Source: a virus. Taken from it: a stretch of DNA of 21,306 bases. The position numbers were made by a program, and so were the translations under genes. The notes under the pieces were generated by a model. It did no database searches. It was not told where the DNA came from and saw nothing but the letters and a program-made list of their open reading frames with translations. The stretch's first letter is position 1, and each line of letters starts with the position of its first letter. The stretch lies in the IMG/VR virus record IMGVR_UViG_3300045988_052980, positions 1-21,306 of that record. One strand, given 5' to 3'. Of this stretch, positions 3,044-21,306 are shown in pieces.

Positions 3044-3579
3044 AAACGAAGTTAATCGGTAATTTCGTTAGAAAAGCTAGGAACGAAGATGGAAACCTAG
3101 AAATAACCTTTGAATTGACTGAACCAATATACGAAGCATACGCTCAGAACCTCGTAAAAGGGGAATATAGTGTAGTTATAGATTCAATAAGGTATTTACG
3201 TACAAATGAACAAAATCGCCTTATGTGGCATTTAATTAGTGAAATATGTAAGGACGATAATGCCGTTTCAAATGACACATGGGATATGTATTGCGAATTT
3301 CTGAAAATGTCAAAAGCATGGTATACATATGTTTCCGTTGTTAAAGAAGGTTATGACGAATTGTGTAGAGCGCATGGAGTTAGAGCAGTACAAGCATTAG
3401 GTACAGAAATAAGAAATAATGGAAAGGAATTTGTGAATTGTAGAGTATTTCTAGGTAGCTCACAAATGGACACAAAGCAAATGGGAGTATTAATTGATTG
3501 CATATTAGATTATGCAGAACAATTAGGAATCAGTACTCAATATTATTTAGATAAAGGAATAAAGGGGGAAGAAAAATAA
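3040..3579 (+). CDS. ninB: NinB/Orf-like recombination mediator
   Basis: RTNEQNRLMWHLISEICKD parallels lambda Orf RSLDQNRKLWACLGDVS. GSSQMDTKQMGVLIDCILDYAEQLGI parallels STSRMRVGEFAELLELIQAFGTEHGV. The TTG start overlaps the upstream TGA. Confidence 0.6.
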   Translation: MKTKLIGNFVRKARNEDGNLEITFELTEPIYEAYAQNLVKGEYSVVIDSIRYLRTNEQNRLMWHLISEICKDDNAVSNDTWDMYCEFLKMSKAWYTYVSVVKEGYDELCRAHGVRAVQALGTEIRNNGKEFVNCRVFLGSSQMDTKQMGVLIDCILDYAEQLGISTQYYLDKGIKGEEK

Positions 3580-3944
3580 AATTTGTAATTAAAGGAAAGC
3601 TTGATGGATTGAATGAATATATTAATGCTTGCAGAACGAATCGTTACAAAGGAGCAGAAATGAAGAAAAAGAATGAGCGTCTTGTAATGGCTTATATCTT
3701 ACAGGCAGTAAATTTTGGCGAGGTTTACGAAGTTAAGGACTACCCAATTAAATTAAATATTAATTGGTATGAGCCAAATAACAAAAGAGATATAGACAAT
3801 ATCACATTCGCTACTAAATTCATTCAAGATTCATTAGTTAGAACAGGAATTTTAGAGGATGATTCAAGAAAATACATTAATCAAGTGAATCATTCAGTAT
3901 TTACAGATAAGGAGAATCCAAGGATAGAGGTAGAGATTTTATGA
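3576..3944 (+). CDS. rusA: RusA-family Holliday junction resolvase, apparent ATA start
   Basis: NKRDIDNITFATKFIQDSLVRTGILEDDS and PRIEVEIL are RusA-like. The family-typical N-terminus KFVIKGKLDGLNEYINACRTNRYKGAEMKKK lies upstream of the track start (TTG 3609). The frame opens at 3555, and its only start-like codon is ATA 3576, 6 nt after GGGGGA (3564-3569). That ATA overlaps the upstream stop as ATAA. Confidence 0.75.
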   Translation: MKFVIKGKLDGLNEYINACRTNRYKGAEMKKKNERLVMAYILQAVNFGEVYEVKDYPIKLNINWYEPNNKRDIDNITFATKFIQDSLVRTGILEDDSRKYINQVNHSVFTDKENPRIEVEIL

Positions 3945-4291
3945 GAGAGCAAGAAATGGCAGTGAATGTAGCAAAGCAAATTTATTTTGATGAATTCAAC
4001 TTGTTTTATCAAATTGCAGAAAGAAGCATAGGAGATACAAATTCAAAGGATGTATTTAATGAAGCGTGTACAGTTCATGATATTACAGAGGAATTCATGT
4101 ATAGATTAAATGATTGTAATAGTTACACAAAAGAAGGATTAAACCAAGAAAGAATAATTGCAATCTATAAAGCATTACATAAAATTGACGGATATTTTAG
4201 TGATGAAAGAATCAAATGCTATATAGAATACACCGACAAAATCATTGATGAAATCCTAAAGCAAGTCGCAGTGCTTGGTGGAGGTGATTAG
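3941..4291 (+). CDS. Hypothetical protein
   Basis: ATGA start/stop overlap with rusA. Track ORF. Confidence 0.6.
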   Translation: MREQEMAVNVAKQIYFDEFNLFYQIAERSIGDTNSKDVFNEACTVHDITEEFMYRLNDCNSYTKEGLNQERIIAIYKALHKIDGYFSDERIKCYIEYTDKIIDEILKQVAVLGGGD

Positions 4292-4292
4292 A

Positions 4293-5024
4293 ATAGCAGA
4301 ACTAAAGAAAAGCCTACAAAGTGGGTATACACACGTTAATAATGAGATATTTCACGATAGAGAATTATCCTATAAAGCAAAAGGCTTGTTTTGCCAAATG
4401 TTAAGCCTTCCGGATAATTGGGATTTTAAGGAAAACAGTATTAAAGCACTAGCTACAGATGGAATATCAAGCGTTCGTTCCGGTTTAAAAGAACTAATGA
4501 ATAAAGGATATTTAATTCGTGAACCTATTAGAGAAGGTAATTTAATTGTTGATTGGCAATATACATTAATAGACAGTCCTCGGAATTTAGAAAATCTAAA
4601 AATAGAAAATCTAAAATTAGAAAATCTAAAATTAGAAAATCTAAACCCTATTAAATTAAATAATAATTCAACTAAAAATGAATTAAATAAAAATAATATT
4701 AATGTATGTACGCACAAACACAAATACGGAGAATATCAACACGTTCTATTAACAGATAAAGAACACACACACCTATTAGATTTATATGGAAACTCATTAT
4801 ATGAGCATATAAAGATTTTGGATGAGTACATTGAAACAAGTGGAAAGAAATACAAGAACCATTCACTAGTGATTCAAAAGTGGGTTCATGATGAATGGAT
4901 GAAAAGAAATAAAGATAATCCTATCACACTTGATTCAAAGTTTTATGTACAAGAAAGCAATCAATCGTATGCAGATGTACAGAAAGAAATGGAACGAGTT
5001 AGAAGGGAAATATTAAGAGCATAA
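4293..5024 (+). CDS. Replication initiator / replisome organizer (N-terminal wHTH, DnaD-like C-terminal part)
   Basis: GYTHVNNEIFHDRELSYKAKGLFCQMLSLPDNWDF...LKELMNKGYL is the typical phage replication-protein wHTH. It is followed by an iteron-encoding linker, then YGEYQHVLLTDKEH...KYKNHSLVIQKW. Start is ambiguous: ATA 4293 is 5 nt after GGTGGAGGTGA (4277-4287), whereas TTG 4275, GTG 4278 and GTG 4284 sit inside or before that SD. Confidence 0.7.
   Translation: MAELKKSLQSGYTHVNNEIFHDRELSYKAKGLFCQMLSLPDNWDFKENSIKALATDGISSVRSGLKELMNKGYLIREPIREGNLIVDWQYTLIDSPRNLENLKIENLKLENLKLENLNPIKLNNNSTKNELNKNNINVCTHKHKYGEYQHVLLTDKEHTHLLDLYGNSLYEHIKILDEYIETSGKKYKNHSLVIQKWVHDEWMKRNKDNPITLDSKFYVQESNQSYADVQKEMERVRREILRA
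4587..4646 (+). repeat. Four tandem 15-bp iterons (TTAGAAAATCTAAAA consensus), candidate phage origin
   Basis: Units at 4587-4601, 4602-4616, 4617-4631 and 4632-4646 each differ from the consensus by at most 1 nt. They encode (L/I)ENLK x4 in the linker of the initiator. An almost pure A+T tract follows at 4647-4710. Confidence 0.8.
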
Positions 5025-5038
5025 GAGGGTGTGAATAA

Positions 5039-6010
5039 ATGGAAAAAATACAGATTTTAGAGCTATTTGGAGGTATCGGTTCTCCAAGATGTGCGTTAAG
5101 AAATATTGGAGTTCCCGTTAAAGCTATCGATTATGTAGAAATAGATGAAAAAGCAGTTCGTTCTTATAACGCAATGTTTGAAGATGAATTAGCGTATAAA
5201 ACTCAATCTGTAGTAGGTTGGAATTTAAGACCAGACATTTTGATACATGGAAGTCCATGCCAAGATTTCTCGATTGCAGGGAAACAAAAAGGAGCGGATG
5301 AAGGCTCTGAAACTCGTAGTTCATTGATGTGGGAAACAATTCACATCATTCAACAAATGGGAGTATGGAAGCCTAGATATGTAATTTGGGAAAACGTGAA
5401 AAACGTATTGTCAAAGCACATGATTCATAACTTCAATCGTTATTTGAAAGAAATGGAAAAAATGGGATATACAAATTCGTTTGAAATATTAAATGCAAGA
5501 GAATTTGGATTACCGCAAAACAGAAATAGAGTGTTCACAGTCTCAATTTTAGGAAATGAATATTTTGAATTTGATGATTTAATCAGAACAAAAGAAAAGA
5601 ATATCAACGATTTTTTAGAAAAAACATTTGAAGATAAATACGTAGTTCGACAAAAAAGTATGTTAAAAAAAATTGAATCTAAAGATAGCAGTTTTAAAGT
5701 GAAAGTGATTAAAGATTATTGCGATACGATAACGTGCAAACAAGTACGCAGTCCAAACGCAGGTGTAATTAGATTAGATGATGGAAGATACAGATATTTG
5801 ACGGAACGTGAGTGTTGGAGATTACAAGGATATACAGATGAGGATTTTGACAATGCAGCAAGAGTAAATCCTGGGAAAGAGGGGTGCATGAACAGTGCAT
5901 TGTACAAGCAAGCAGGGAATTCAATTCCTGTACCAATATTTGAAAGTATATTCAGAAAAATAATACTGAATCAAACAGATTCAAGTAACAAGGAAAACAG
6001 ATTGTTTTAA
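5039..6010 (+). CDS. DNA (cytosine-5)-methyltransferase, orphan
   Basis: Motif I ELFGGIGS, motif IV GSPCQDFS, motif VI ENV, motif VIII QNRNRVF, motif X AGNSIPVP. No restriction endonuclease gene is adjacent. Confidence 0.9.
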   Translation: MEKIQILELFGGIGSPRCALRNIGVPVKAIDYVEIDEKAVRSYNAMFEDELAYKTQSVVGWNLRPDILIHGSPCQDFSIAGKQKGADEGSETRSSLMWETIHIIQQMGVWKPRYVIWENVKNVLSKHMIHNFNRYLKEMEKMGYTNSFEILNAREFGLPQNRNRVFTVSILGNEYFEFDDLIRTKEKNINDFLEKTFEDKYVVRQKSMLKKIESKDSSFKVKVIKDYCDTITCKQVRSPNAGVIRLDDGRYRYLTERECWRLQGYTDEDFDNAARVNPGKEGCMNSALYKQAGNSIPVPIFESIFRKIILNQTDSSNKENRLF

Positions 6011-6024
6011 AGGAGGAAAAAACC

Positions 6025-8283: not shown

Positions 8284-8547
8284 ATGATTAGATTACAAAA
8301 TAATTATGCAATCACTTCTAACGGTGGTTCATTCGCCCTTGTAACGTTCGTAAAGGGTAAGGATAAAGAAGGGAATGAGATAGACGTACAAAAGCCTATC
8401 TCATACCATACAACGCTAGAATCGGCTTTACAGAGTTATTCTAACAATCGTATGGCAGATTTAGTTAGTAACTTTGATATGGATTTAAAGAATGTTAAGA
8501 AAGCTATAAATGAGCTTAAAGAGGAGTTAAAAGCGTATGACTGCTAG
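8284..8547 (+). CDS. Hypothetical protein
   Basis: AAGGAG at 8271-8276. ATG 8284 has a 7-nt spacer, while the track ATG 8278 has only 1 nt. Confidence 0.55.
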   Translation: MIRLQNNYAITSNGGSFALVTFVKGKDKEGNEIDVQKPISYHTTLESALQSYSNNRMADLVSNFDMDLKNVKKAINELKEELKAYDC

Positions 8548-9476: not shown

Positions 9477-9948
9477 TGTAGCAGTAATAGCAGGACATCT
9501 AACTAAAGATGTTGAATTATCAAAAACACAGAACGGAAATATCGTAGCAAAATTCACGGTAGCAGTAAATGGATACAATGATACTACAGATTTTATTAAT
9601 TGTGTAGCATGGAATAAATTAGCAGATATTGTGAATATGTATTGCAAGAAAGGCGATTTAGTTACGGTTGAAGGAAGAATCAGTGTTAGAAATTATGAGA
9701 ATCAACAAGGACAAAGAATTTATATCACTGAAGTGGTGGCTAGTAACGTGCAATTACCGCATAAAAACGTTTCTAATGGGCAAAATTTCAGTTCTAATGT
9801 AAATGCATATCAATATCCAAACCAAGCAAATAACAACGCTTACGGCGTTCAAAACACATATACACAACCTAGCTTAACACAACAAATCGCACAACAAGAA
9901 TATACTGAAAGCGGATTAAATATTGCTTCAGATGATTTACCGTTCTAG
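9469..9948 (+). CDS. ssb: Single-stranded DNA-binding protein
   Basis: OB-fold N-terminus (MINVAVIAGHLTKDVEL...FINCVAWNKLADIV...GDLVTVEGRI), an Asn/Gln-rich linker and the canonical acidic tail DDLPF. Confidence 0.9.
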   Translation: MINVAVIAGHLTKDVELSKTQNGNIVAKFTVAVNGYNDTTDFINCVAWNKLADIVNMYCKKGDLVTVEGRISVRNYENQQGQRIYITEVVASNVQLPHKNVSNGQNFSSNVNAYQYPNQANNNAYGVQNTYTQPSLTQQIAQQEYTESGLNIASDDLPF

Positions 9949-9967
9949 AGGGGGAATATTAATAGAA

Positions 9968-10156
9968 ATGAATTATGAAGAAAGGATTAAAGAGTTAATT
10001 TCTAAAAACAACAGATTAGGAAGGACGAATATTCAGTTAATTCAAAAGATTAAAGAAAAAGATGAAACAATACACAATCAAACTTTAGAATTGAGGCAAT
10101 TAAGAAATAAAGTTGGTGAATTAGAAGATAGATTGATGAGGATGTATGTATCATGA
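9968..10156 (+). CDS. Hypothetical coiled-coil protein
   Basis: ATG 9968 is 13 nt from GAGGGGG (9948-9954). An in-frame ATA at 9962 has the ideal 7-nt spacing. The track start at 9923 lies inside ssb. Confidence 0.5.
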   Translation: MNYEERIKELISKNNRLGRTNIQLIQKIKEKDETIHNQTLELRQLRNKVGELEDRLMRMYVS

Positions 10157-10479
10157 GCACATATGAAGATGTTAAAAGACACTTCTTGTGTGAATGTAAA
10201 AGCTACACTTATTATGAGCAGAGAATAGCAGAGCTACAAAGGGATGAAGCTATTTATCCTTTAAAAGCCGAGCTATTCTTAGCTCATGCAGATTACGCAA
10301 GAAGAATGAACTACGTAAAAGACAAATTAAGCCAACTTGATGATACAACTCGTACCATGATTGAGTATAGATATATAAAGGGATTCAGTGCAGAAAAAAC
10401 ATCTAATATTGTAGGTTATGCACGAGAAGAAATTCCACGAAAAATAAACAAGAATTTGAAGAAAGTGCTCACAATGTGA
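10153..10479 (+). CDS. Sigma-70 region-4-like / ArpU-type late transcription regulator candidate
   Basis: C-terminal TRTMIEYRYIKGFSAEKTSNIVGYAREEIPRKINKNLKK looks like a sigma r4 HTH. It is the last gene before the terminator and the packaging/structural genes. Confidence 0.55.
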   Translation: MSTYEDVKRHFLCECKSYTYYEQRIAELQRDEAIYPLKAELFLAHADYARRMNYVKDKLSQLDDTTRTMIEYRYIKGFSAEKTSNIVGYAREEIPRKINKNLKKVLTM

Positions 10480-10488
10480 GCATTTTTT
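10466..10488 (+). terminator. Rho-independent terminator ending the early/middle operon
   Basis: Stem TGCTCAC (10466-10472) / GTGAGCA (10476-10482), loop AAT, then TTTTTT (10483-10488). It overlaps the regulator's stop codon. Confidence 0.6.
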
Positions 10489-10505
10489 CATGTAATAATT
10501 ATTTT

Positions 10506-10581
10506 AGCAGGATAGAGCAGTAGTAGCTCACTAGTCTTATTAGCTAGAGGTCGAACGGTGCAAATCCTTCTCCTGCAACCA
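10506..10581 (+). tRNA. Atypical tRNA with anticodon UAU and an initiator-like acceptor and D arm, CCA encoded
   Basis: Hand fold: AGCAGGA-TA-GAGC-AGTAGTA-GCTC-A-CTAGT-CTTATTA-GCTAG-AGGTC-GAA(C)GG-TGCAAAT-CCTTC-TCCTGCA-A-CCA. Initiator-like: A1xA72 mismatch, G2:C71, C3:G70, A11:U24, A73. Deviations: U37, no GG in the D loop, G55 and a bulged C in the T stem. Confidence 0.6.
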
Positions 10582-10793
10582 TGTTTACAAAGTCTATTGG
10601 TTAGCATTATCTTTCTATTCATTTAAATTGGCGTATGTAATCCAATCCTTAAGATTTTCTTTAATAAATTCGTTTAAATATCCTTTTTCAATAGGAGGGT
10701 GATTGAGAAATGACTTGCTAGTGTTCCAAAAAAAGCAAATCGGATATTTAAATACCAACAGTTAACAGGCATGCCATTAGGCTTTTGTATATT

Positions 10794-11102: not shown

Positions 11103-11574
11103 ATGGAAATTATTAGATTGAAAATCAATAACATTACACCTTACGAAAAGAATGCAAAGATTCATACTGAAGCACAAATTGAACAAATTAAGAAATCTAT
11201 TCAAGAATTTGGTATGAATGACCCAATCGCAGTATTGGGGGGGGAACAATACCATAGTTGAAGGTCATGGTCGTTTAGAAGCCTTAAAGCAATTAGGCTA
11301 TACAGAAGTTGACTGTATCAGACTAGACCACCTAACAGATGAAGAAAGAAAAGCTTATACACTTGCTCACAACAAAATCAATATGAATACAGGATTCGAC
11401 TATATGTTATTAGATGAAGAATTAGACAGTATCGAAGATATTAATATGGGAGATTTTGGATTTGAAAGTATTGATGAAATTAATATGGATGAATATTTTG
11501 AAGATACCGAGCCAACAAAAAAAGAACCTAAAAAAATTCAGTGTCCACATTGTGGTGAATGGTTTGAACAATGA
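11103..11574 (+). CDS. ParB-like nuclease-domain protein (DpdB-like position), split by a +1 frame change in a G8 tract
   Basis: Frame A (ATG 11103) reads MEIIRLKINNITPYEKNAKIHTEAQIEQIKKSIQEFGMNDPIAVLGG and stops at 11259-11261. Frame B (track ORF 11218..11574) continues NNTIVEGHGRLEALKQLGYTEVDCIRLDHLTDEERKAYTLAHN. Together they form a complete ParB N-domain (DPI.V....IV.GHgRl.A). The junction is GGGGGGGG at 11237-11244. The stop overlaps the dpdA start (ATGA). Confidence 0.7.
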
Positions 11575-12329
11575 GAATGTTTCTAGCAGGAAGTATGGGG
11601 GGATTAACAAAATCGAAGTATAGTCAAGAAGAATTGTTTAAAGGTGCTTATATCTTACAATCGTTCTACTATGTGGACAAGTACGTTGAAAATGTAATAA
11701 TGCCAAACTGTAAAGATTTTATTTTAGATAGTGGGGCATTTACATTTATGCAAAATTCAAAAAAATCTGTAAATTGGGATGAATATGTTGAGAAATACGC
11801 AGAATTTGTAAAGAAACACAAAGTTAAGAAATACTTTGAATTAGATATTGATTCAATAGTTGGGTTAAAAGAAGTAGAACGATTAAGAGCAAAATTGGAA
11901 GCGTTGGTGGGGTGGCAATGTATTCCTGTATGGCACTTATGGAGAGGAATGGACTATTGGCATAAGATGTGCAAAGAATATTCATATGTAGCTATAGGTG
12001 GATTAGCAGATACAGATAAACATTCAAAGAGGATTAAAAAATTACATAATTGTTTCCCTATGTTAATTAATATAGCTCATAAAAATGGAGCAAAAGTTCA
12101 TGGGTTAGGTTACACATCATTAAAAGGAATAAAAAAATATCATTTTGATTCTGTTGATAGCACATCATGGTTAAGTGGAAATAGATTTGGAGCAGTTTAC
12201 AAATTTAATGGTGAAACGATAGTTAAGATAGATAAGCCAAAAAATAAAAGAGTAAAGACAAATATAGCAATGGAAAACAATTTTATGGAATGGAAAAAGT
12301 TCTCTCAATATGTAGAAAGGATGTATTAA
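11571..12329 (+). CDS. dpdA: DpdA-family 7-deazaguanine DNA transglycosylase (TGT-like)
   Basis: ILDSGAFTF corresponds to the TGT DSGGFQ block, and HGLG....HFDSVDSTSW to the second catalytic Asp block. Size (252 aa) and the adjacent queC fit phage DpdA. Confidence 0.8.
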   Translation: MRMFLAGSMGGLTKSKYSQEELFKGAYILQSFYYVDKYVENVIMPNCKDFILDSGAFTFMQNSKKSVNWDEYVEKYAEFVKKHKVKKYFELDIDSIVGLKEVERLRAKLEALVGWQCIPVWHLWRGMDYWHKMCKEYSYVAIGGLADTDKHSKRIKKLHNCFPMLINIAHKNGAKVHGLGYTSLKGIKKYHFDSVDSTSWLSGNRFGAVYKFNGETIVKIDKPKNKRVKTNIAMENNFMEWKKFSQYVERMY

Positions 12330-13162
12330 TGAATAAGGTAGTAAAATTAATATCCGGCGGTATTGATTCAACTATTATGGCTAATATGTACGAAGGATTA
12401 AATGTATATGTAGACTTTGGGCAAAATTATGTAAAAGAAGAATTGCAAGCTTTAAAAGAGTTAGGAATTAAATATGATTTAGTAAAGGTAAATAGCGTAT
12501 TTAAAGAAGATGATATATACATTAATGATAGAAACCTAGTATTAGCAAGTTTAGTTGCAATGATATATAATCCGGACATCATTATGATGGCAGGTACAAA
12601 GGATGACAATTGTGTAGATAAGACTAAAGAAGCATTTGAAAACATTAGCGATACTATTAGTCGATATTCAAATAAGGAAATAAAAGTTATATCACCTTTT
12701 TGGGATAAGACTAAAAGTGAAATTGTTGAACAATATGCAGATAAGGAAGAATTAAAAAAGACATTTTCATGCTATAACCCAATTAATGGGAAACCATGTA
12801 TGGATTGCCCTGCGTGTTTAAGAAAAACTATTGCACTAGTAACAAATGGAGTAGAAGTAAAAGAAAAGCTATCAAAAAGCATTTTAAAAAAATATCTTAA
12901 AAAGATACATACATATGATAAAGACAGAATTAGTAGATTCTTTTTCTACCTACAACAATATGAACAAATTAATGCAATTGATATTGACGGAGTATTATGT
13001 ATCTCAGAAGGACACGATTTTGAGAATAGTATTCCAATTTACGAGAATATAGAAAAAGTAAATAAATACGATGGAATTAATGTACTCTATACGTCAAGGT
13101 TAGAATCGGATAGAGAAGTGACTGAAAAATGGTTACAAAAGCACAACGTCAAATATGCTTAA
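12329..13162 (+). CDS. queC: QueC-like 7-cyano-7-deazaguanine (preQ0) synthase fused to a C-terminal HAD-phosphatase-like domain (HAD tail frame-disrupted)
   Basis: PP-loop SGGIDST, DFGQNY, NDRNLVLA, SPFWDKTKSEIV and Zn cluster SCYNPINGKPCMDCPACLRK are QueC-like. From about 12970: AIDIDGVL (HAD motif I) and NVLYTSR (motif II). Motifs III/IV (NKLPYTSLVDDRA) are encoded in the -1 frame at 13159-13221. The ATG at 12329 overlaps the dpdA stop. Confidence 0.75.
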   Translation: MNKVVKLISGGIDSTIMANMYEGLNVYVDFGQNYVKEELQALKELGIKYDLVKVNSVFKEDDIYINDRNLVLASLVAMIYNPDIIMMAGTKDDNCVDKTKEAFENISDTISRYSNKEIKVISPFWDKTKSEIVEQYADKEELKKTFSCYNPINGKPCMDCPACLRKTIALVTNGVEVKEKLSKSILKKYLKKIHTYDKDRISRFFFYLQQYEQINAIDIDGVLCISEGHDFENSIPIYENIEKVNKYDGINVLYTSRLESDREVTEKWLQKHNVKYA

Positions 13163-13231
13163 TAACAAATAAATTACCATATACAAGTTTAGTTGATGAC
13201 AGAGCAAAATTAACATTATAAAGGAGTAAAT

Positions 13232-13534
13232 ATGATTGAAAACAAAGAAAAAGTAAAATATATCGAAATGTATCCAAAGGCAAGATGTTTCTGCCCTATT
13301 GGTAAAGCATGGTACACCAATAAATTTAGAGTATCAGTATTTCCTAGAGATTGTTATTTCGACTATCTAGATGTAGAGAAATTTATTAAAGAAGAAATTG
13401 AAGGAAAAAGCTTAACAATTGAAGGAGCTTGCAAGAAACTATATAACTATTTGAAAAAAGATGTTGAAGATATTCAAGTAGAATCACACGTAAATGACGC
13501 AACGCATTTTCCTGTAAAGGTATTAATTGATTAA
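13232..13534 (+). CDS. Short QueF-like T-fold protein (nitrile reductase or QueF-L-type amidinotransferase)
   Basis: ARCFCPIGKAWYTNKFRVSVFPRDCYFDYLDVEKFI...TIEGACKKLYNYL aligns by eye with B. subtilis QueF [34 protein letters not shown]...FHEDCMNIIMNDL, with the Cys-Pro conserved. It is only 100 aa and lacks the N-terminal extension. Confidence 0.45.
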   Translation: MIENKEKVKYIEMYPKARCFCPIGKAWYTNKFRVSVFPRDCYFDYLDVEKFIKEEIEGKSLTIEGACKKLYNYLKKDVEDIQVESHVNDATHFPVKVLID

Positions 13535-13547
13535 GGAGGAAGTACTA

Positions 13548-14006
13548 ATAAAAAATCAAACAATTAAGACAATTTCAATGAATGCAATCGTATGTGCAAT
13601 GTATGTTGCATTATGTGTAGCATTAAATCCAATTAGCTTTGGAGCATTACAATTTAGAGTAGCAACTCTATTGTTACCGTTAGGGTTTCAAGATAAGAGA
13701 TTTGCAAATGGACTTATTTTAGGAGTAATCTTAGCAAACCTAACAAGTTCACTAGGATTAATTGATGTATTAGTTGGATTTACAATTCAATTTACAATGT
13801 ATTATTTATTCCCATATTATATTAAGAATAAATGGATTCATGGAATTGCTTATGCAGTATTAAGTGGAACATTAGTAGCATTAGAATTATTATCAGTATT
13901 ACACATTCCATTCTTATATTCATTTGTAACGGTTGGATTAAGCGGATTGATTTTATACGAAGTAGGAAATGTATTGTGTACAAGATTATTGAAATACATT
14001 GATTAA
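13548..14006 (+). CDS. queT: QueT-family membrane transporter (queuosine-precursor salvage), apparent ATA start
   Basis: NAIVCAMYVALCVALNPISFGALQFRVATLLLPL and ILANLTSSLGLIDVLVG match the QueT pattern, with about 5 TM segments. AAGGAGG (13533-13539) is followed after 8 nt by in-frame ATA 13548. The track TTG 13527 lies upstream of that SD. Confidence 0.7.
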   Translation: MKNQTIKTISMNAIVCAMYVALCVALNPISFGALQFRVATLLLPLGFQDKRFANGLILGVILANLTSSLGLIDVLVGFTIQFTMYYLFPYYIKNKWIHGIAYAVLSGTLVALELLSVLHIPFLYSFVTVGLSGLILYEVGNVLCTRLLKYID

Positions 14007-14408: not shown

Positions 14409-15739
14409 ATGAATAAGCCTGCACCTTTTAATCAAAAGCAGTTGGCTTACCTCAAGAAAACATTTGATTGTTGGTTGAATGTACTTGAGGGAGGTTAGGC
14501 AAGCGTGGAGGAAAGAACGTACTGAACACGTACGCATTCTGCGTTGCATTAGAAACACATCCGGATAAATTCCATTTGATAGCAGGAACGGATACATCAT
14601 CAGCACGTGTAAATATTGGAGATTGTAATGGATATGGTTTGCAGAACTATTTTGCTAATAGATTCAAAGTAGGAAAGTATGAAGGTAAAGACTGCTACTA
14701 CATCAACACAAAGGTTGGTGAAAAGGTTGTATTCTTTGCCGGTGGTGCTAAAAAAGGCTCAGAGAATGCGATACATGGTTATTCTTATGGAATGGCATAT
14801 GTAACAGAAGCAAACCTTTGTTGCATTGAGTTTCTACAAGAAGTGATGGATAGAACAATAGCTTCAAGCAATCGAAAGATATTTCATGATTTAAACCCCA
14901 AAGGAAAGAATCATTGGTATTATACTGATTTCTTGAAATATCATGAGGAGCAACAGAATAAAGATTCTACATATGGTTACAACTATGGGCATACCACCTT
15001 AGTTGATAATTATTCATTAAGTGATGAGCAGATAAGAACGGTCTTAAAATCATACGATAAGAATAGCGTTTATTACAAAAGAGATATAAAAGGACAAAGG
15101 GAAGAAGCCGAAGGACTTGTGTTCCCTTATTTTGCTAATGACTGCAAACCTTACCTATTTAAATATCAGAGTCTAAAAGAAAAGATGAAAGAACAAGGAA
15201 AAAGGTTCAGTCATTTAATCATAGGTGTTGACTTTGGAGACAATGGGTCAAAGTATTCATGGCATTTAACAGGGTTTACAAATGATTGGGATTATATGTG
15301 GGCACTTGATGAAGGAGACATGGCAAAATCTAATTCCATAGACGCAACAAAGTTCTGCAAAGCGTTTGTAAGGTTCTATAAGCGTTGTATTGAATGTTAC
15401 GGATATGTGGAATGGATATTTCCGGACAGTGCTTCTAATACATTAATTAACACGCTTAGAGCTTATTTCTACGCCGAAGGGCTAGACGGAAGTATAATTG
15501 CACCGGTCAAGAAGAATGAGCTAACCGACCGTCCCATAACGGTTGATAGCTTACTTGTTACAGGAAGATTGAAGATAGAAGAACATTGTAAGAACTTAAT
15601 AAACGCATTGAGCGAATTGGTATGGGATAAAAAAAAAGACATTCCAAAAGATGAGAACGTAAACAATATCAATGACGATTGGGATTCGTTCTGCTATACA
15701 TTTATAACCCATAGTGGATATATAGATTTAAGGAGGTAA
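14409..15739 (+). CDS. terL: Terminase large subunit, frame-disrupted at the Walker A region
   Basis: ATG 14409 (AAGGTGG SD) gives MNKPAPFNQKQLAYLKKTFDCWLNVLEGG, then TAG at 14496-14498. The rest (..GKRGGKNVLNTYAF...FHLIAGTD...VVFFAGGA...NPKGKNHWYY...IIGVDFGDNGS) is in another frame, open from 14489; the track ORF starts only at TTG 14576. Confidence 0.8.
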
Positions 15740-15742
15740 GAA

Positions 15743-17146
15743 ATAGAAACATCTAACACACGTAGACCGTGGTTTCAAAACTACCTTAACGAAAGAGGGT
15801 ATTTTGTAGATACAAACGCAATTGAAATCATTGAATTGTGTAACAAGTGGTATACGAATACAGAAACAGAATTTCATACGGCATACACATTAAATAACGA
15901 GGAATACACGCTAGACAAAACAGACTTTGCAAAGCGCTTGTGTGAGGATGACGCAAACCTAATTGAAATCTTAGATATAAACGCAACAGAGGACAGTGTT
16001 ACAAATGATATTATTTCAGACATTCTAACAAAGAACAGGTTTGATGTAATGTATAGGAAACAAGTTGAGCAAATGTCTGCAAACGGAACAGTAGGAGCTT
16101 ATGTAACTGTATCGAATGCCGAAATTTATGAAGATGGTTCATTTAGTGGAGGAGAAATCAGAATCAACTATTGTGATTCAATGAATATCCTCCCATTAAC
16201 TGTTATCAATGATGAAATTGTGGAAGTTGCTTTCGTTGGGGTAAATTACGAAAAACTAAAAAAAGTATATGTAATGGTCATGTTCTTAAAAGGACAAGAC
16301 GAAAGATATATTGCAGAAACACATTACTTTAAAGATACAGGCGAAGAAATAAAAGACCGTGCTCAGATTGTTCAATTAGATGTTGTAAAGCCGTTTGCAA
16401 TTATGAGAAACGCAAAGGTAAACAACTTACAAATGCAAGGTTACGGCTTGCCAAAAATTTGGAGCGCAATTGCTCCACTGAAAACAATTGATTTAACAAT
16501 GACAATGTGGAATCGTGATTTGTTGAAATCCGATAAAATCGTTCTTGTGAATGAAGCATTAATGCAGAAAGACGAGAATGGAAAGATTAAGATGAATCCA
16601 CAAATGAAAAAGATATTTGTTCAGTTAGGTAGAGATAAGCTTCCGGAAGAAAAAGCTTTATGGCAAGAATATAATCCAACAGTAAGAACGGCAGAAGTTG
16701 TTCAATCACTAGAAACTGCGTTAAGTATCTTATCTATGATGTTTGGATTTGGTACAAAGAAATATACGTTTGAAAGTGGAAGAATCGTAACGGCTACAGA
16801 ATATATCGGTGAGAATCAAGACGCAATGAAGGAAGTAAATTCACAACGTAAAGAATCTACTGCATATATTCAAGATATTATTCAAGCGATAGCGTACTTC
16901 TACGAATTAACACAAGGAAGAAAGCTTAATATCAATTCATTAGACATTGCAATTGATTATGACGATACGTATATCGAGGATAAGCAAAGCACGGCACAAG
17001 CGTTAAGGAATGACGCACTAACATTTGATATTCCAAGATTGAAAATCATGTACTTTATGAAGCAATACGGCTTTACTGAAGAAGAAGCTACTGAATTATT
17101 AAATGAAGAAATTCAAGATGATGGAGAGGAGGATGAAGAAGAATAG
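15743..17146 (+). CDS. Portal protein (SPP1 gp6-like), apparent ATA start
   Basis: About 467 aa directly after terL, with an acidic tail DDGEEDEEE. The frame opens at 15740. AGGAGG (15731-15736) is followed after 6 nt by ATA 15743. The first canonical start is TTG 15836, which has no SD. Confidence 0.75.
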   Translation: METSNTRRPWFQNYLNERGYFVDTNAIEIIELCNKWYTNTETEFHTAYTLNNEEYTLDKTDFAKRLCEDDANLIEILDINATEDSVTNDIISDILTKNRFDVMYRKQVEQMSANGTVGAYVTVSNAEIYEDGSFSGGEIRINYCDSMNILPLTVINDEIVEVAFVGVNYEKLKKVYVMVMFLKGQDERYIAETHYFKDTGEEIKDRAQIVQLDVVKPFAIMRNAKVNNLQMQGYGLPKIWSAIAPLKTIDLTMTMWNRDLLKSDKIVLVNEALMQKDENGKIKMNPQMKKIFVQLGRDKLPEEKALWQEYNPTVRTAEVVQSLETALSILSMMFGFGTKKYTFESGRIVTATEYIGENQDAMKEVNSQRKESTAYIQDIIQAIAYFYELTQGRKLNINSLDIAIDYDDTYIEDKQSTAQALRNDALTFDIPRLKIMYFMKQYGFTEEEATELLNEEIQDDGEEDEEE

Positions 17147-17778
17147 CAACTACATATTTTCCATTCGTCTCAAGAAATGGCGATAGATTAGTGTTATATG
17201 ACGCTTTCAGAAGATTATTCTCAAGCTATTTCACAAATGGTGTGTTCATAGACGATTCTAGTTCAGACCATTTAAGAGTTGAGAAAGCTCAAGGCTTAAC
17301 ATTAACAATTAAAGCAGGACGAGCAAATATTAATGGAGCGTTCTATTGGCAGAAAGATGACGAAACCATAACATTAGAAAAGAATAGCGCTACTAAAAAC
17401 TACAATATTATTCTTAGGTTAAATGATAATGACACATATAGAAACATTACCTTAGTAGCAAGTGATATTAACAGTGGAATTACAAGAAGTGATTCTATTT
17501 ACGATTTGGTATTAGCTACAGTTACGGTAACAGGTAATTCAAATGAAGTTAAAGGTTCAGATATTACAGATACAAGATTAGATTCAACACGTTGTGGAGC
17601 AGTTACAAGCGCAATTAAAAGCGTACAATCGTTGGATTTATTTACCCAAGTTACTGAGTTATTCAAAGAAATTAAGGCTCAGAATGAATCTGAAATGAAC
17701 GCAAATAGAACAGAGTTCAATGATTGGTTTGAAACTGTAAAAGATACGTTAGACGCAAATACGGCAGGGAAACATTGA
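17143..17778 (+). CDS. Fibre/baseplate-type structural protein (YFPF..GDR family), apparent ATA start, C-terminus frame-disrupted
   Basis: (M)ATTYFPFVSRNGDRLVLYDAFRRLFSSYFTNGVF...LTLTIKAGRANINGAFY matches the widespread Firmicute prophage structural family that begins M..YFPFdS..GDR.Y. The frame opens at 17137, and its only start-like codon is ATA 17143, overlapping the portal stop as ATAG. The track GTG 17191 would remove the conserved N-terminus. Confidence 0.6.
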   Translation: MATTYFPFVSRNGDRLVLYDAFRRLFSSYFTNGVFIDDSSSDHLRVEKAQGLTLTIKAGRANINGAFYWQKDDETITLEKNSATKNYNIILRLNDNDTYRNITLVASDINSGITRSDSIYDLVLATVTVTGNSNEVKGSDITDTRLDSTRCGAVTSAIKSVQSLDLFTQVTELFKEIKAQNESEMNANRTEFNDWFETVKDTLDANTAGKH

Positions 17779-17899: not shown

Positions 17900-18808
17900 A
17901 TGGCAGGAAGACAAGTAACAGAATTAGACACATTGCCTAGCTTCACGGATACAAGTTTATTACCAGTACACAATGGAGCAGGATTAAAAAAAGGAACATT
18001 ATCGCAATTGGCAAACTATTTAGGAACTAAATTCAGTAATCCAAATTTATTGATTAATCCCGATTTTAAAATAAATCAGAGAGGAAAAGCAGAGTATACA
18101 AGTGATGGTACAGTAAGATATACGGTAGATAGATGGAGAAGTTTATCTTTAAATGTAAAGACTGATACAAACGGTATATTACTATCCGCAGACAGTCAGA
18201 ATGATGATGGCGGATTCATTGCACAGGAATTGGAAAAATCAATTGATTTAGAAACACTATTTACATTGAAAGTTGGTTCAGTAACCGGAAGTATTGTAGT
18301 TTCAGTTATGGATAGTGCGTCTAATGGAAACAATTTAAATATTACAACGAGTGGGATTTATTCTATAGGTTTAGCAAACCAAGCTAAAAAAGTAATTATA
18401 CAAGTTACAAAAGGAAGCTCTTGTAAGATTGAGTGGGCGAAATTAGAACAAGGCTCAATTGCTACTCCTTTTGTTGCTCCAAATCCGGCAGAAGAATTAG
18501 TGAAATGTGCGCGATTTTTACAAATGATACCGGAAATATACTTTATTCCGTACGCAAGTACGAGAACGGCGTTTATTAGTGATGGGAGATATTATCAAAG
18601 TACAGGTGGTTTATTCCCGGTAGAAATGCGCACGAATCCAACAGTCACGTATAGTAATATACATAAAGCCGATGATGAAGTGATTTCTGAAAAAGTTACA
18701 AGTGTTGATTCAAATAAACACGGAATTGGTCTTATCGTTATTTGTAATAATGCAGGATATTATACATTAAGAATGAAAAACATTGTTGCGGACGCAGAAA
18801 TTTACTAG
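17900..18808 (+). CDS. Tail-fibre / receptor-binding-like protein
   Basis: N-terminal VTELDTLPSFTDTSLLPVHNG..KKGTLSQLANYL followed by NLLINPDFKINQRG...YTVDRW, both typical of phage fibre proteins. Strong SD. Confidence 0.5.
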   Translation: MAGRQVTELDTLPSFTDTSLLPVHNGAGLKKGTLSQLANYLGTKFSNPNLLINPDFKINQRGKAEYTSDGTVRYTVDRWRSLSLNVKTDTNGILLSADSQNDDGGFIAQELEKSIDLETLFTLKVGSVTGSIVVSVMDSASNGNNLNITTSGIYSIGLANQAKKVIIQVTKGSSCKIEWAKLEQGSIATPFVAPNPAEELVKCARFLQMIPEIYFIPYASTRTAFISDGRYYQSTGGLFPVEMRTNPTVTYSNIHKADDEVISEKVTSVDSNKHGIGLIVICNNAGYYTLRMKNIVADAEIY

Positions 18809-18817
18809 GAGGAAGCT

Positions 18818-19162
18818 ATGAACGAACATAAAGTATACGTATCCTTACAAGATGGATACATCACATCTATTAATTCAGAAATCTTTTTATCACAAGAAGA
18901 AATGTCAACTATGACAGAAATTGACCATGGGAAAGGCGACAAATACGCACATGCACAAAGTCAATATCTAGAAAAAGAATTAGTTGATGAGCACGGTAGA
19001 TACAATTATAAATTTGCAGAAGGTAAAGTGATTGAGGTTGCAGAAGCAGAAAAGCCAACAATCGAAGAACCAAAAGCAGTACCAACGGAGCAAGAGAAGA
19101 TTAACGCACAATTAATGCTACAGATTGCACAGTTAAAAGCTCAAATGAATGGGGTGAAGTAG
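18818..19162 (+). CDS. XkdW-like protein (gene type that precedes xkdX in PBSX-like elements)
   Basis: ITSINSEIF...IDHGKGDKYAHAQSQYLEKELVDEHGRYNYKF pattern and its position before an XkdX-like gene. Called from memory. Confidence 0.4.
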   Translation: MNEHKVYVSLQDGYITSINSEIFLSQEEMSTMTEIDHGKGDKYAHAQSQYLEKELVDEHGRYNYKFAEGKVIEVAEAEKPTIEEPKAVPTEQEKINAQLMLQIAQLKAQMNGVK

Positions 19163-19163
19163 T

Positions 19164-19283
19164 ATGAGTTATGAATTAATCAAATCGTATTATGAATTAG
19201 GCTTATTTACAAAGAATGATTTAGAAATCTTTGCTTCTATTGGATGGATTACAGAAACTCAGAGAAAAGAATTAATTAAATAG
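19164..19283 (+). CDS. XkdX-family small phage protein (39 aa)
   Basis: Not in the ORF track. MSYELIKSYYELGLFTKNDLEIFASIGWITETQRKELIK fits the XkdX pattern (Y..g.yt..dl...V..g.IT.eey..I). Confidence 0.55.
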   Translation: MSYELIKSYYELGLFTKNDLEIFASIGWITETQRKELIK

Positions 19284-19299
19284 GCATTAAAAGCGTTTT

Positions 19300-19321
19300 A
19301 AAGGGCATTTAAGCCCTTTTT
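19300..19321 (+). terminator. Rho-independent terminator after the fibre cassette
   Basis: AAAGGGC (19300-19306) / GCCCTTT (19313-19319), 6-nt loop, followed by a run of T. Confidence 0.6.
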
Positions 19322-19339
19322 CTATATGGGGGTATATAA

Positions 19340-20521
19340 ATGTTAAGTGAAGAAGAACAAAGGGAACAAGAACGTGAAAAAAGGCAAGAGCAAAGAAAGA
19401 AAGAACGCCTACAAAAGCAGATTGAGAAAAGAAGAAATTTTGAAGAAAGAGAAAGAAAAAGTGTCAAGCGTGCTAGTGTATTTGAATTGGGAATGATGAT
19501 ATTCATTTCAAATAAAATTCGTGAAGTGCTAGAAAAAAGCACCGAAGAAAATGCGAAATTTAATGAGATATTAGCAAAATCACTAGTAGATTTGCGTAAA
19601 TTCACAAAAAAAGAATCAAAAAGCCTAAAAAAAGATGTAATTAAGGAATCAAAAAAGGATTTTGAAGAAAATAAGCAAGGAACACTTGATTTAATCAAAG
19701 AAGCAAGTGGGAAACCTATCAAAAATAAGCTCAAGATAGATTTATATATCAGTCCACAAAACGATACCTCAAAGCGTTGGAAGAAATATATCAAGACAAG
19801 TGCTAACACGTATGCAATCGGTAAAGATAAACTACCGGTATTCTTTACAAAGGTAGTTCAAGAAGAAGTTAAGAATGTAGTAGGTGGAAAATGTACAATT
19901 GATGATTCTTGTAGAAAAGCTATCTCAAAATTAGCATATAGTGGCGTAAAAATCGTGGAATATGATACAGGTGTTAAAAGAAATGTGGATGTATGGGTAA
20001 GGCAACAAATGCAGTACGCAGAAAAAGAATCATCACAAGAAATTAACAATAAATGTGCTAAAGATTTGGGCGTTACTGTATTCGAGTTTGACGCTCACGC
20101 AAATGCAAGACCAAGCCATAAGAAGTGGCAAGGCAAGCGATACGACACGCAAGGGAAATTATATCCTAGCTTGTATGAGTTAACGCATGGAGAAGAAAAA
20201 GATTATGGATGTAGACACTTTGCTCAACCTGTATGGGATATTGATATGCCTTACGCTTACACAAAAGAGCAGTTAAAGAATATTGATACAAAACCTTTCA
20301 CATTCCAAGGAAAAAAATATGAAGGATATGAAGCTAGGCAGTATCAAAGAGAACTAGAAAGAAACATTAGAGCATTAAAGAGGGAAGTAATCTTATTGGA
20401 CAATCAAGGATTAGGAAGTACAGAAGCAAAAATTAAGCTAAAACACGCAAATGCAACGTATAAAGCTTTCAGTTCTGAAATGGGAGACAGAGTTCACAAC
20501 GATAGGCTTAGAATTGGCTAA
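19340..20521 (+). CDS. Minor capsid / head morphogenesis protein (Mu F / SPP1 gp7-like)
   Basis: FEFDAHANARPSHKKWQGKRYD and YEGYEARQYQRELERNIRALKRE blocks are typical of this family. Highly charged N-terminus. GGGGGT SD. Confidence 0.7.
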   Translation: MLSEEEQREQEREKRQEQRKKERLQKQIEKRRNFEERERKSVKRASVFELGMMIFISNKIREVLEKSTEENAKFNEILAKSLVDLRKFTKKESKSLKKDVIKESKKDFEENKQGTLDLIKEASGKPIKNKLKIDLYISPQNDTSKRWKKYIKTSANTYAIGKDKLPVFFTKVVQEEVKNVVGGKCTIDDSCRKAISKLAYSGVKIVEYDTGVKRNVDVWVRQQMQYAEKESSQEINNKCAKDLGVTVFEFDAHANARPSHKKWQGKRYDTQGKLYPSLYELTHGEEKDYGCRHFAQPVWDIDMPYAYTKEQLKNIDTKPFTFQGKKYEGYEARQYQRELERNIRALKREVILLDNQGLGSTEAKIKLKHANATYKAFSSEMGDRVHNDRLRIG

Positions 20522-20616
20522 AACGCTCACATTGTGAGCTATTATTCAAGCTAAAATATAGTTAGCCAAAACCATACCGGAGAAGATTCGGTTTATAAAT
20601 AACTTTAGGAGGGCAA

Positions 20617-21201
20617 ATGAAAAACATTATTGAAATTTTAAAAGAATCAAACATTGAATTAACCAAAGAGCAAGAGGACTCAATTACAAAGCTAGTAAAT
20701 GACAACTATAAGACGATTGCAGAGTTCGACAAGCAAAAAGAAAAGCTATCTTTAGCAGAGAACAACGCAAAGGAAATTCAAACAAAGTTTGATGATTTCA
20801 AGAAAAGCTATGATGGAGTTGATGTAGAAGAATTGAAAAATAAAATCAATACATTGACGAATGATATTGACACTCAAAAGACAAACTACGAAGCTCAGAT
20901 TAGCAAAATGAATCTTGATTCTGTATTAAGCGCAAAAGCTAAAGAATACGGATGTAAAGATTTCGATTTAGCGAAATCACAATTCAACTATGATGATTTA
21001 CTAAATTCAAAAGACCAAACAAATGACATTGACAAAGCTTTTAAGACATTAAAAGAAAAAAAACCAATCTTATTTGAGGAAAATCAAAATGAACCTGTTG
21101 CCAAAGGAAATATCGTTGGAAACAGTGGGCAAGGAGATAACCCAAACGCCGAAGATTTATTATTACGACAAGTAATGGGTTTAACTACAGAAAAGAAATA
21201 A
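20617..21201 (+). CDS. Scaffolding protein (GP20-like)
   Basis: Coiled-coil, Lys/Glu-rich, with a ...AFKTLKEKKPILFEE block. It lies between the head morphogenesis and capsid genes. Confidence 0.7.
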   Translation: MKNIIEILKESNIELTKEQEDSITKLVNDNYKTIAEFDKQKEKLSLAENNAKEIQTKFDDFKKSYDGVDVEELKNKINTLTNDIDTQKTNYEAQISKMNLDSVLSAKAKEYGCKDFDLAKSQFNYDDLLNSKDQTNDIDKAFKTLKEKKPILFEENQNEPVAKGNIVGNSGQGDNPNAEDLLLRQVMGLTTEKK

Positions 21202-21215
21202 GGAGGATTTAATTA

Positions 21216-21306
21216 ATACCAAATGAAATTGCATTAGCTAAAACGTATGTCTCAAATTTGGATGAGGTATATAAGTTAGCTTCAGTAACAGGTGATTTAA
21301 ATGCAG
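21216..21306 (+). CDS. Partial CDS: probable major capsid protein N-terminus, apparent ATA start
   Basis: AAGGAGG (21200-21206) is followed after 9 nt by ATA 21216. Reads (M)PNEIALAKTYVSNLDEVYKLASVTGDLNA to the window end. The frame opens at 21213. The nearby ATG 21223 is out of frame and stops after 4 codons. Position after the scaffold gene and the LDEVYK..S.T block suggest a capsid protein. Confidence 0.5.
   Translation, partial: MPNEIALAKTYVSNLDEVYKLASVTGDLNA

Follow-up and report, generated by a model that had tools for sequence, protein, structure and literature searches.

We analyzed a 21,306-nucleotide stretch of viral DNA (IMG/VR record IMGVR_UViG_3300045988_052980, positions 1 to 21,306; hereafter, the window means this whole stretch) and propose that the temperate siphovirus it comes from uses AUA as a genuine start codon for about one in five of its genes, and that these starts would be read by a phage-encoded initiator tRNA with the anticodon UAU, the gene for which lies at 10506–10581 on the plus strand. 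We put the probability of this explanation, which includes a low-GC human-gut bacterium as the host, at roughly 0.7. Nine of the ~41 genes in the window start with ATA; each has a strong Shine-Dalgarno sequence (SD) followed by A-ATA and is without a usable canonical start codon. An earlier reading of the sequence alone (hereafter, the original prediction) had named eight of these sites, grading four as strong and four as ambiguous, and had connected them with the tRNA. Its site coordinates, SD motifs, and spacers were all reproduced, and all eight sites are present, but the list was incomplete, as it missed a ninth site at ATA 2510. Also reproduced was the A in front of every ATA, found at position −1 in 9/9 of the window’s ATA starts, four of which read ATAG.

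In the four cases graded strong, no ATG, GTG, or TTG lies between the upstream in-frame stop codon and the ATA, as had been claimed. The RusA resolvase gene (3564–3944; all ATA-start genes of the window are on the plus strand) has the SD GGGGGA at 3564–3569, a 6-nt spacer, and A-ATA at 3576; its frame opens at 3555, the ATA overlaps the upstream stop codon (ATAA), and the next canonical codon is TTG 3609. The alignment of RusA to phrog_1682 begins at amino acid 2, and ATA was found in 21/21 copies. For the portal gene (15731–17146, stop codon TAG at 17144–17146), the SD AGGAGG at 15731–15736 is followed by a 6-nt spacer and A-ATA at 15743 in a frame open from 15740. Its next canonical codon, TTG 15836, is codon 32, and the phrog_533 alignment begins at amino acid 25, seven residues upstream of that first canonical start; all 66 related copies have ATA in the start column with A at −1. 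The gene for a head-fibre or receptor-binding-type protein (phrog_1220; 17127–17778) has its SD, AGGAGG, at 17127–17132 and A-ATA at 17143, where the ATA overlaps the portal stop codon (ATAG). The frame opens at 17137, the next canonical codon is GTG 17191, and the phrog_1220 alignment begins at residue 3. The 5′ end of the major capsid gene (21200–21306), which runs out of the window, shows the SD AAGGAGG at 21200–21206, a 9-nt spacer, and A-ATA at 21216, with the frame open from 21213, the next canonical codon at TTG 21258, and ATA in 49/49 related copies.

The four sites graded ambiguous (4293, 13548, 9962, and 991) turned out to be backed by conservation or by interchange with ATG. The gene for a DnaD-like replication initiator (4277–5024) has the SD GGTGGAGGTGA at 4277–4287, a 5-nt spacer, and A-ATA at 4293; the free energy (dG) of the SD duplex is −15.5 at ATA 4293 versus −0.6 at TTG 4275, ATA is kept in 25/25 matching stretches though their SDs vary, and PHROG alignments begin at amino acids 4–9. 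A small coiled-coil gene (9948–10156) with the SD GAGGGGG at 9948–9954, a 7-nt spacer, and A-ATA at 9962 has ATA in 56/56 matched stretches, and its spacer is highly variable yet always ends in A. The QueT transporter gene (13533–14006) has the SD AAGGAGG at 13533–13539, an 8-nt spacer, and A-ATA at 13548, and amino acids 11–146 of its product align to positions 3–138 of the Pfam QueT profile. The site missed by the original prediction belongs to a small conserved gene (phrog_7566; 2498–2803) with the SD GAGGG at 2498–2502, an upstream stop codon TAG at 2505–2507, and A-ATA at 2510. Its 97-aa product covers profile positions 2–96 of 96, ATG 2546 within it has no SD (dG −0.9), and orthologues in other relatives have a TTG start two codons upstream. 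Finally, a small open reading frame (ORF) at 979–1119 that has no canonical start anywhere shows the SD GGTGA at 982–986 (dG −14.1) and A-ATA at 991, with ATA in 7/7 related copies; since it had no family match in Pfam and PHROG profile comparisons, it is the weakest member of the set. Three further ATA codons that had come up on SD score alone (11254, 8040, and 8380) were rejected as internal isoleucine codons on account of a lacking −1 A, interchange with ATC, or a good ATG nearby.

Canonical codons downstream of the ATAs were rejected as alternative starts, because they have no good SD and starting there would remove family-conserved residues. Duplex dG values were about −9 to −18 kcal/mol at the ATAs and about +0.5 to −6.4 kcal/mol at the first canonical codons: −11.1, −12.5, −18.4, and −11.1 kcal/mol at ATA 3576, 15743, 17143, and 21216, against −6.0, −1.6, −6.4, and +0.5 kcal/mol at TTG 3609, TTG 15836, GTG 17191, and TTG 21258. 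PHROG or Pfam profiles begin at residues 2–11 for RusA, the head fibre, phrog_7566, QueT, and the replication initiator, and conservation at the protein level extends over the residues that separate the ATA from the canonical codon.

A first, permissive count of SD-plus-triplet combinations gave no discrimination, and the comparison with controls that the original prediction had called for was instead made on ORFs of at least 80 codons with a strong SD (duplex dG ≤ −9 kcal/mol) and no canonical start behind that SD (orphan-SD ORFs), counting all sense triplets at the SD-defined position so that each triplet serves as its own control. Six of the seven orphan-SD ORFs in the window have ATA at this position; given that ATA makes up 1.7% of internal codons, the probability of at least 6/7 by chance is ~1 × 10−8 to 6 × 10−7. 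The seventh (14489–15739) is the body of the large terminase gene (TerL), the true start of which is ATG 14409, followed by a frameshift, which accounts for it without another start codon. Among the relatives, referred to below by our own numbers, the proportions were 9/10 in L066, 6/7 in L068, 7/8 in L070, and 7/7 in L075, against 0/2 and 0/1 in the outgroups L080 and L082. In every family member, the ATA count was at least twice that of the next most frequent triplet.

Aligning homologues, another check put forward with the original prediction, showed that ATA is conserved in the start column and that the tRNA co-occurs with it. ATA remained unchanged in 25–66 copies per site while SDs and spacers varied. 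In the first 64 related loci, it was present in 49/49 portal, 48/48 head-fibre, 36/36 capsid, 56/56 coiled-coil, and 25/25 replication-initiator matches. A systematic survey found ~25 gene families with an ATA start in this lineage, which in relatives also include small terminase, tail, and tape-measure-region genes. Six orthologous start columns alternate between ATA and ATG among near-identical relatives: head fibre (66 ATA, 1 ATG), a tail gene (31 and 1), a gene whose product begins AIEYLDKSG (25 and 6), queT (5 and 2, e.g., ATG in L018), the gene that starts with ATG 17900 in the window (2 and 46), and small terminase (1 and 11). Internal ATA codons that had passed the SD filter (11254, and 8355 in L001) alternate with ATC or GTA. 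That ATA in start columns swaps only with ATG while internal ATA swaps with isoleucine or valine codons indicates that the former behaves as a start codon.

For the head-fibre gene, gene calls from close relatives, which are N-terminally truncated, cover 84–92% of the query, and distant homologues cover 97–100%. One homologue (P0044, 68% identical) begins MATTYFPFVS, in register with IATTYFPFVS in the window, and has ATG in the start column at the DNA level, as does L065. Because homology reaches the ATA, the ATA stays invariant amid varying spacers, and ATA and ATG interchange, the sequence comparisons support ATA as the real start codon of these genes. Public gene calls (P0001–P0087) place the starts of portal, capsid, and fibre at downstream TTG, GTG, or ATG codons, losing from 16 to more than 50 residues.

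The tRNA gene was matched by Rfam at 10506–10578 (tRNA, RF00005; 48.8 bits, E = 7 × 10−8), and A73 and an encoded CCA extend it to 10581. ARAGORN, run on the window, did not call this tRNA, probably due to an extra T-stem nucleotide or a degenerate elbow. In the numbering of the Rfam alignment, the acceptor stem has an A1·A72 mismatch followed by G2:C71 and C3:G70; the D-stem, G10 A11 G12 C13 with G22 C23 U24 C25, contains an A11:U24 pair; the anticodon stem is CUAGU/GCUAG and the loop C32 U33 U34 A35 U36 U37 A38, giving the anticodon UAU and a U at position 37. The variable loop is AGGUC, the T-loop UGCAAAU, and the T-stem has one extra 5′ nucleotide. Thirteen variants of this tRNA were recovered from 71 sources, and three further types from gut metagenomes. 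In the alignment of the variants, 99.6% of cells were paired, compared with 36–57% in slid controls, and the anticodon stem showed double compensatory changes at three pairs, with 31:39 as U·G or C–G. The pairing and compensatory changes indicate that the molecule is under selection as a folded tRNA, and the Rfam match and covariation bear out the original prediction of a real UAU tRNA at this place. The initiator-type acceptor and D-arm features that had been noticed are both present, as the A1·A72 mismatch and the A11:U24 pair.

When all complete Escherichia coli genomes were searched with the tRNA, the sole tRNA genes matched were annotated tRNA-Met genes, at a median of four places per genome and with 78% identity over 99% of the query. 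The best match, which alone was inspected, falls in a three-gene cluster between mltA and amiC, presumably the initiator tRNA genes metZWV; a count of four would then agree with the number of initiator genes, metZWV and metY together. Across the variants, the 1:72 position is A·A in the window and most others, a C1×A72 mismatch in L104, and a weak U1–A72 in L075–L079, and is never G:C; the D-stem GAGC/GCUC with its A11:U24 pair is invariant in the 13 variants and the three new types, and so are the loop CUUAUUA and the anticodon UAU in every copy. Formyltransferase recognizes a 1–72 mismatch together with an R11:Y24 pair (PMC9976931), and since the phage tRNA lacks a strong 1:72 pair and has A11:U24, both determinants are present. 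A tRNA-fMet-like sequence, A73, G2:C71, C3:G70, the AGGUC variable loop, and the templated CCA were all found, and CCA is templated more frequently in initiator genes than in those of any other standard tRNA class (PMC5143459). With elongator tRNA-Ile(UAU), the phage tRNA shares the anticodon but not the paired 1:72, Y11:R24, or A37. By sequence, the tRNA is initiator-derived, yet it is not a tRNA-fMet.

Two of the further types have more regular structures. The L100/L109 type combines a regular T-arm (GGAGG-UUCAAUU-CCUUC) and a GG-containing D-loop with the loop CUUAUUA, and the tRNA of L104 has a textbook C1×A72, a canonical elbow, and the same loop.

Position 37 of tRNAs is almost always a purine, and the U37 of this tRNA, invariant in both the window lineage and L104, has a counterpart in the mRNAs. 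When distinct start contexts of the window and ten relatives were pooled, the base at −1 was A in 67/72 ATA starts and U in none (0/72), compared with A in 68/145 and U in 35/145 ATG starts; all ~25 ATA-start families have A at −1, and 39% of internal ATA codons (42/107) are preceded by A. The five ATA contexts without −1 A are consistent with internal false calls like those at 8380 and 11254 in the window. Position 37 of E. coli tRNA-fMet pairs with the mRNA base at −1, as established with ~45,000 mRNA variants, and A37U and A37G mutants of that tRNA prefer the complementary −1 base (Hollerer and Jeschek 2023, PMC10018350); earlier chloroplast work on this pairing is cited there (Esposito et al. 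2003). The combination of U37 and −1 A, a link that we add to the original prediction’s observation of the A alone, leads us to predict a four-base-pair A-AUA:UAU-U37 interaction from the covariation statistics. The host initiator would be disfavoured at the ATA sites, because its A37 favours U at −1 and U was never seen there.

The tRNA was present in every relative whose locus extends to the tRNA region. It was also found in L104 (to which L091 is related), a diverged lineage in which the portal has ~66% nucleotide identity, the locus is mostly unalignable, and the tRNA is 76% identical; there, A-ATA starts were found in 5/5 orphan-SD ORFs, including terminase-like, portal, and capsid genes. 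At four of these five L104 starts (3013, 4798, 7979, and 9946), an in-frame TGA or TAA stands directly before the ATA (e.g., GGTGATTGA-ATA), such that the start codon is the first codon of the open frame and the −1 A closes the stop codon; the window lineage shows no such arrangement. Relatives without the tRNA (L135, L080, L082, and L136) had no ATA starts: the portal of L135, which is 44% identical, starts at GGAGGAGCUA-AUG, an ATG behind an SD, and L136, a complete 41.6-kb gut phage, has neither a tRNA nor credible ATA-start sites. The covariation within the tRNA, its matches to E. coli tRNA-Met, the formyltransferase determinants, and the co-occurrence in a diverged lineage make the phage UAU tRNA the likely decoder of the ATA starts.

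Initiators with altered anticodons start translation at the complementary non-AUG codon, with the amino acid set by the anticodon (PMC2268962, PMC11744186), and on this basis we propose the following sequence of events. A dedicated initiator tRNA would have evolved from a bacterial tRNA-fMet through a change of anticodon from CAU to UAU while keeping the features that route a tRNA to initiation (no strong 1:72 pair, A11:U24, A73, G2:C71, C3:G70, and the templated CCA); because these are kept, we expect the tRNA to be aminoacylated, formylated by the host formyltransferase, bound by IF2, and set in the 30S P site at an SD-positioned AUA. MetRS depends on C34, and lactic-acid-bacterial IleRS accepts UAU tRNAs, which makes isoleucine charging by IleRS the most plausible and methionine less likely. 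U37 would pair with the −1 A, and the resulting four-base interaction may both offset a codon–anticodon helix made entirely of A:U pairs and mark the sites for the phage initiator over the host initiator with its A37 and its preference for a −1 U. Charging, formylation, P-site use, and quadruplet pairing are steps that we infer from sequence.

In its fuller form, this proposal describes a natural orthogonal channel, in which the UAU/U37 initiator reads A-AUA behind an SD, the proteins start with fIle or Ile rather than fMet, and the host initiator reads the sites so poorly that replication and virion genes depend on, or are boosted by, the phage tRNA. We lean towards this form by a small degree only, and a mixed model, in which basal reading by the host initiator is boosted by the phage tRNA, is compatible with the best explanation. 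As to purpose, which the original prediction took to be timing or autonomy control, we can only speculate that lytic genes are kept poorly translated until the tRNA is made, or that phage initiation is made independent of the host initiator pool.

Several observations weigh against phage-tRNA decoding of the ATA starts. Three consecutive G:C pairs in the anticodon stem matter for the P-site selection of E. coli tRNA-fMet, and the phage tRNA does not have them: the window copy has A29–U41, G30–C40, and U31·G39, and other variants have G29–C41, G30–C40, and U31·G39, with C31–G39 in one variant. The elbow of the window-type tRNA is unusual, with a bulged T-stem in which the extra nucleotide is variable (C, U, A, or G), G55 instead of U55, and a 7-nt D-loop without G18G19. 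The tRNA could thus be partly defective; the degenerate elbow may matter for IF3 or elbow contacts, or may reflect relaxed constraint. The charging enzyme is ambiguous, in that U37 is without t6A37, a strong determinant for bacterial IleRS (PMC9976931), and U34 is without the main MetRS determinant. Upstream of the tRNA, its strand carries five early genes with ATA starts, and a promoter scan around the tRNA found nothing above shuffled expectation. Six unrelated IMG/VR phage contigs (L094–L099) with ARAGORN-called tRNA-Ile(UAU) genes showed no ATA or U-ATA start signal in their 5–12-kb fragments, and we therefore do not generalize the finding to tRNAs of the A37 type.

Two side observations belong here. 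The hairpin TGCTCAC-AAT-GTGAGCA followed by TTTTTT lies on the plus strand at 10466–10490, 16 nt upstream of the tRNA (the scan had listed this stem on the minus strand only); a possible terminator of the early operon, it would, if it acts as one, leave the tRNA dependent on a separate promoter. The tRNAs of L094–L099, contigs with GC contents of 29–64%, have an initiator-type D-stem, which the search pattern demanded, A37, the loop CUUAUAA, and weak or mismatched 1:72 positions (U–A, C·U, and G·U), which it did not demand. They may point to a wider class of initiator-like UAU tRNAs, or may serve another function.

The strongest rival explanation accepts the ATA starts as real but has the host fMet-tRNA(CAU) read them near-cognately with the help of strong SDs, the phage tRNA being unrelated to initiation, for example as an elongator-type tRNA-Ile(UAU) for internal AUA codons or an anti-defence decoy. 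It draws on the infC, ccpN, and citZ genes of Staphylococcus aureus, where AUA on extended SDs gives 10–30% of AUG expression (PMC13009471), a precedent that also counts against the need for a phage initiator, and it explains the interchange of ATA with ATG. The SDs at the phage ATA sites are indeed strong, AUA is common internally (107 codons, 24% of isoleucine codons), the tRNA is without the three-G:C anticodon-stem signature, and the A37-type UAU tRNAs of other phages have no associated ATA starts. On the other hand, attenuating starts would be odd for the most abundant virion proteins and for ~20% of genes, and in E. coli the wild-type initiator reads AUA at 0.1–1% of AUG efficiency (PMC11744186). 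The tRNA is initiator-like and not elongator-like in its 1:72 position, A11:U24, tRNA-Met matches, and U37 in place of t6A37; the A37 of the host initiator should favour U at −1, yet U was found at 0/72 and A at 67/72 ATA starts; and tRNA and ATA starts occur together in two diverged lineages and are both absent in other relatives. Taken with these points, reading by the host initiator alone seems unlikely.

A second rival is termination–reinitiation, in which ribosomes ending the upstream gene would restart nearby without a proper start codon. Most ATA starts are 0–14 nt from the upstream stop codon and two overlap it (ATAA at 3576 and ATAG at 17143), and an E. coli study has demonstrated that non-AUG codons can serve in reinitiation, but there it still required a codon-matching initiator tRNA (PMC2268962). 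The ATG genes of this phage are spaced equally tightly, 84 nt separate ATA 991 from the ORF before it, and the SD of the capsid gene is 3′ of the scaffold stop codon. Reinitiation would moreover leave the constant A-ATA and the matching tRNA unexplained, and we regard it as very improbable.

The last reading to be weighed, that the ATAs are base-call errors or inactivating ATG-to-ATA changes, with translation from downstream TTG or GTG codons or no protein at all, could appeal to two apparent lesions in the window (the split TerL and a 20-nt head-fibre deletion, described below), but it retains almost no probability: the same ATAs recur across different studies in more than 100 independent assemblies, which excludes the base-call errors that the original prediction had listed as an alternative, the downstream canonical codons are without SDs and would lose conserved family residues, and the residues from the ATA to those codons are conserved at the protein level. 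Stop-codon recoding was rejected, as the genes are contiguous and intact under table 11 and the sole tRNA has a sense anticodon.

The proposed AUA-reading phage initiator has its closest analogues in engineered tRNA-fMet mutants with CUA, GAC, AAC, and similar anticodons (RajBhandary, Schulman; PMC2268962, PMC11744186, bioRxiv 2021.05.25.445580), which likewise place an initiator scaffold with a changed anticodon at the complementary codon behind an SD. In both, the amino acid would follow the anticodon, and the codon may keep its ordinary sense in elongation. The engineered initiators are laboratory constructs, however, whereas the phage system would be natural and virus-encoded, with dozens of co-evolved start sites and with position 37 and the −1 base changed together; the engineered tRNAs also retain the three-G:C signature that the phage tRNA is without. 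With the A37/−1 U pairing of tRNA-fMet (PMC10018350), the phage system would share the contact between position 37 and the base 5′ of the start codon, but as U37 with A(−1), a combination that, judging from covariation, nature has apparently fixed and that goes with a non-AUG codon. Since anticodon-mutant initiators and 37/−1 pairing each have experimental precedent, the system is directly testable.

Natural systems resemble it in part. Lak, crAss-like, and other gut phages recode stop codons with phage-encoded suppressor tRNAs; there, too, a codon in the phage’s own genes is given another meaning by a tRNA whose anticodon is altered, possibly gating expression, but those tRNAs act on stop codons in elongation, whereas here a start codon would be affected and the ORFs are intact under the standard code. 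Animal mitochondria routinely start at AUA, using a tRNA-Met with f5C34 and a CAU anticodon. In elongators generally, the acceptor end is paired, the D-stem is of the elongator type, and position 37 is A. Mycoplasma mobile and lactic acid bacteria have an elongator tRNA-Ile(UAU) (cited in PMC9976931) that resembles the phage tRNA in that UAU reads AUA and that some bacterial IleRS enzymes charge a UAU tRNA, and the phage tRNA differs from it by its 1:72 mismatch, A11:U24, and U37. The infC genes of E. coli and S. aureus, and ccpN and citZ of S. aureus, start at AUA or AUU behind a strong SD as the phage genes do (PMC13009471). Their starts, however, are read by a CAU tRNA and are rare, confined to a few attenuated regulatory or low-expression genes and without a dedicated tRNA, a pattern that does not fit the phage, in which ~20% of genes, including major structural ones, have such starts alongside a dedicated UAU tRNA. 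In the literature, of which our coverage was incomplete, neither a natural initiator tRNA with a non-CAU anticodon nor the reassignment of a start codon by a phage was found described, and what came up was limited to engineered analogues and AUA starts read near-cognately; as far as present evidence goes, the system is without natural precedent.

To our knowledge, every known cellular or organellar system initiates with a CAU-anticodon tRNA, and non-AUG starts are near-cognate readings by that same tRNA. If our explanation is right, this would be the first natural reassignment of a start codon, by way of an initiator with a differing anticodon matched to its own start codons, and start-codon reassignment would join stop-codon recoding as a viral privatization of the genetic code. 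It would also allow the recognition of start sites by quadruplet pairing, through position 37 and the −1 base, to be studied in a natural system, raise the prospect of bacterial proteins that begin with isoleucine, and supply synthetic biology with an evolved orthogonal pair of initiator and start site. For annotation, the consequence is that ~20% of the genes in these phages, which are common in the human gut, are shortened or overlooked by standard gene callers, and the truncated public predictions for portal, capsid, and fibre carry wrong N-termini into structure prediction and family building. Pipelines would have to allow ATA starts whenever the tRNA is detected, and ARAGORN itself misses that tRNA.

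The window has a GC content of ~32%, and almost every gene is on the plus strand. It opens with a divergent CI-type repressor gene on the minus strand (111–485), after which the plus strand carries genes for a Sak recombinase, NinB, RusA, the DnaD-like replication initiator, a DNA methyltransferase, a pyrophosphohydrolase, and other early genes, and then the tRNA. A ParB-like gene and a DpdA/QueC/QueT 7-deazaguanine module follow 3′ of the tRNA, and the structural genes come in the order small terminase, large terminase, portal, head-fibre/receptor-binding-type protein, fibre C-terminal protein, minor head protein, scaffold, and capsid, the last with its first 30 codons inside the window. More than 100 related contigs were found, all of them metagenomic and, wherever a source was stated, from human gut or faeces. 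A megablast search of the structural region against deposited phages gave no match, and a protein-level search reached uncultured human-faecal phages (44% at best) and distant Bacillota phages; neither found a cultured relative. Scans of genome contigs with the portal protein and with the 5′ half of the tRNA were both empty and found no host genome.

Several other features of the window are worth recording. The 7-deazaguanine or queuosine-type module just 3′ of the tRNA (11571–14006), which probably is a DNA-modification system, includes genes for a DpdA-like transglycosylase (11571–12329) and a QueC-like protein (12329–13162) next to queT; its composition differs among relatives, some of which, such as L070, add TAGT and radical-SAM genes. 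The large terminase gene is split (14409–15739): ATG 14409 opens MNKPAPFNQKQLAYL, the frame is then ended by TAG at 14496–14498, and the remainder of TerL lies in the −1 frame at 14489–15739. The junction, GAGGGAGGTTAGG, is SD-like and directly 5′ of the stop codon. An independent assembly, L129, is gapless over the junction region at 96.7% identity, and L100 and L109 differ there by 5 nt. A programmed frameshift, a variant of the sublineage, or a genuine defect could each account for the split. The head-fibre gene of the window lacks 20 nt near 17768 that are found in L012, L030, L109, and L129, and the resulting frameshift and early stop leave 211 aa, compared with 236–300 aa in relatives. 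Together, the split TerL and the head-fibre deletion suggest that this copy may be a decaying prophage or a mis-assembly. Just 3′ of the tRNA, a minus-strand frame at 10590–10710 (encoding a peptide that begins NFVNMVAGEGFAPFDLRLIR) is conserved in 77 related stretches, which may reflect DNA conservation of the tRNA flank only, or a small antisense gene.

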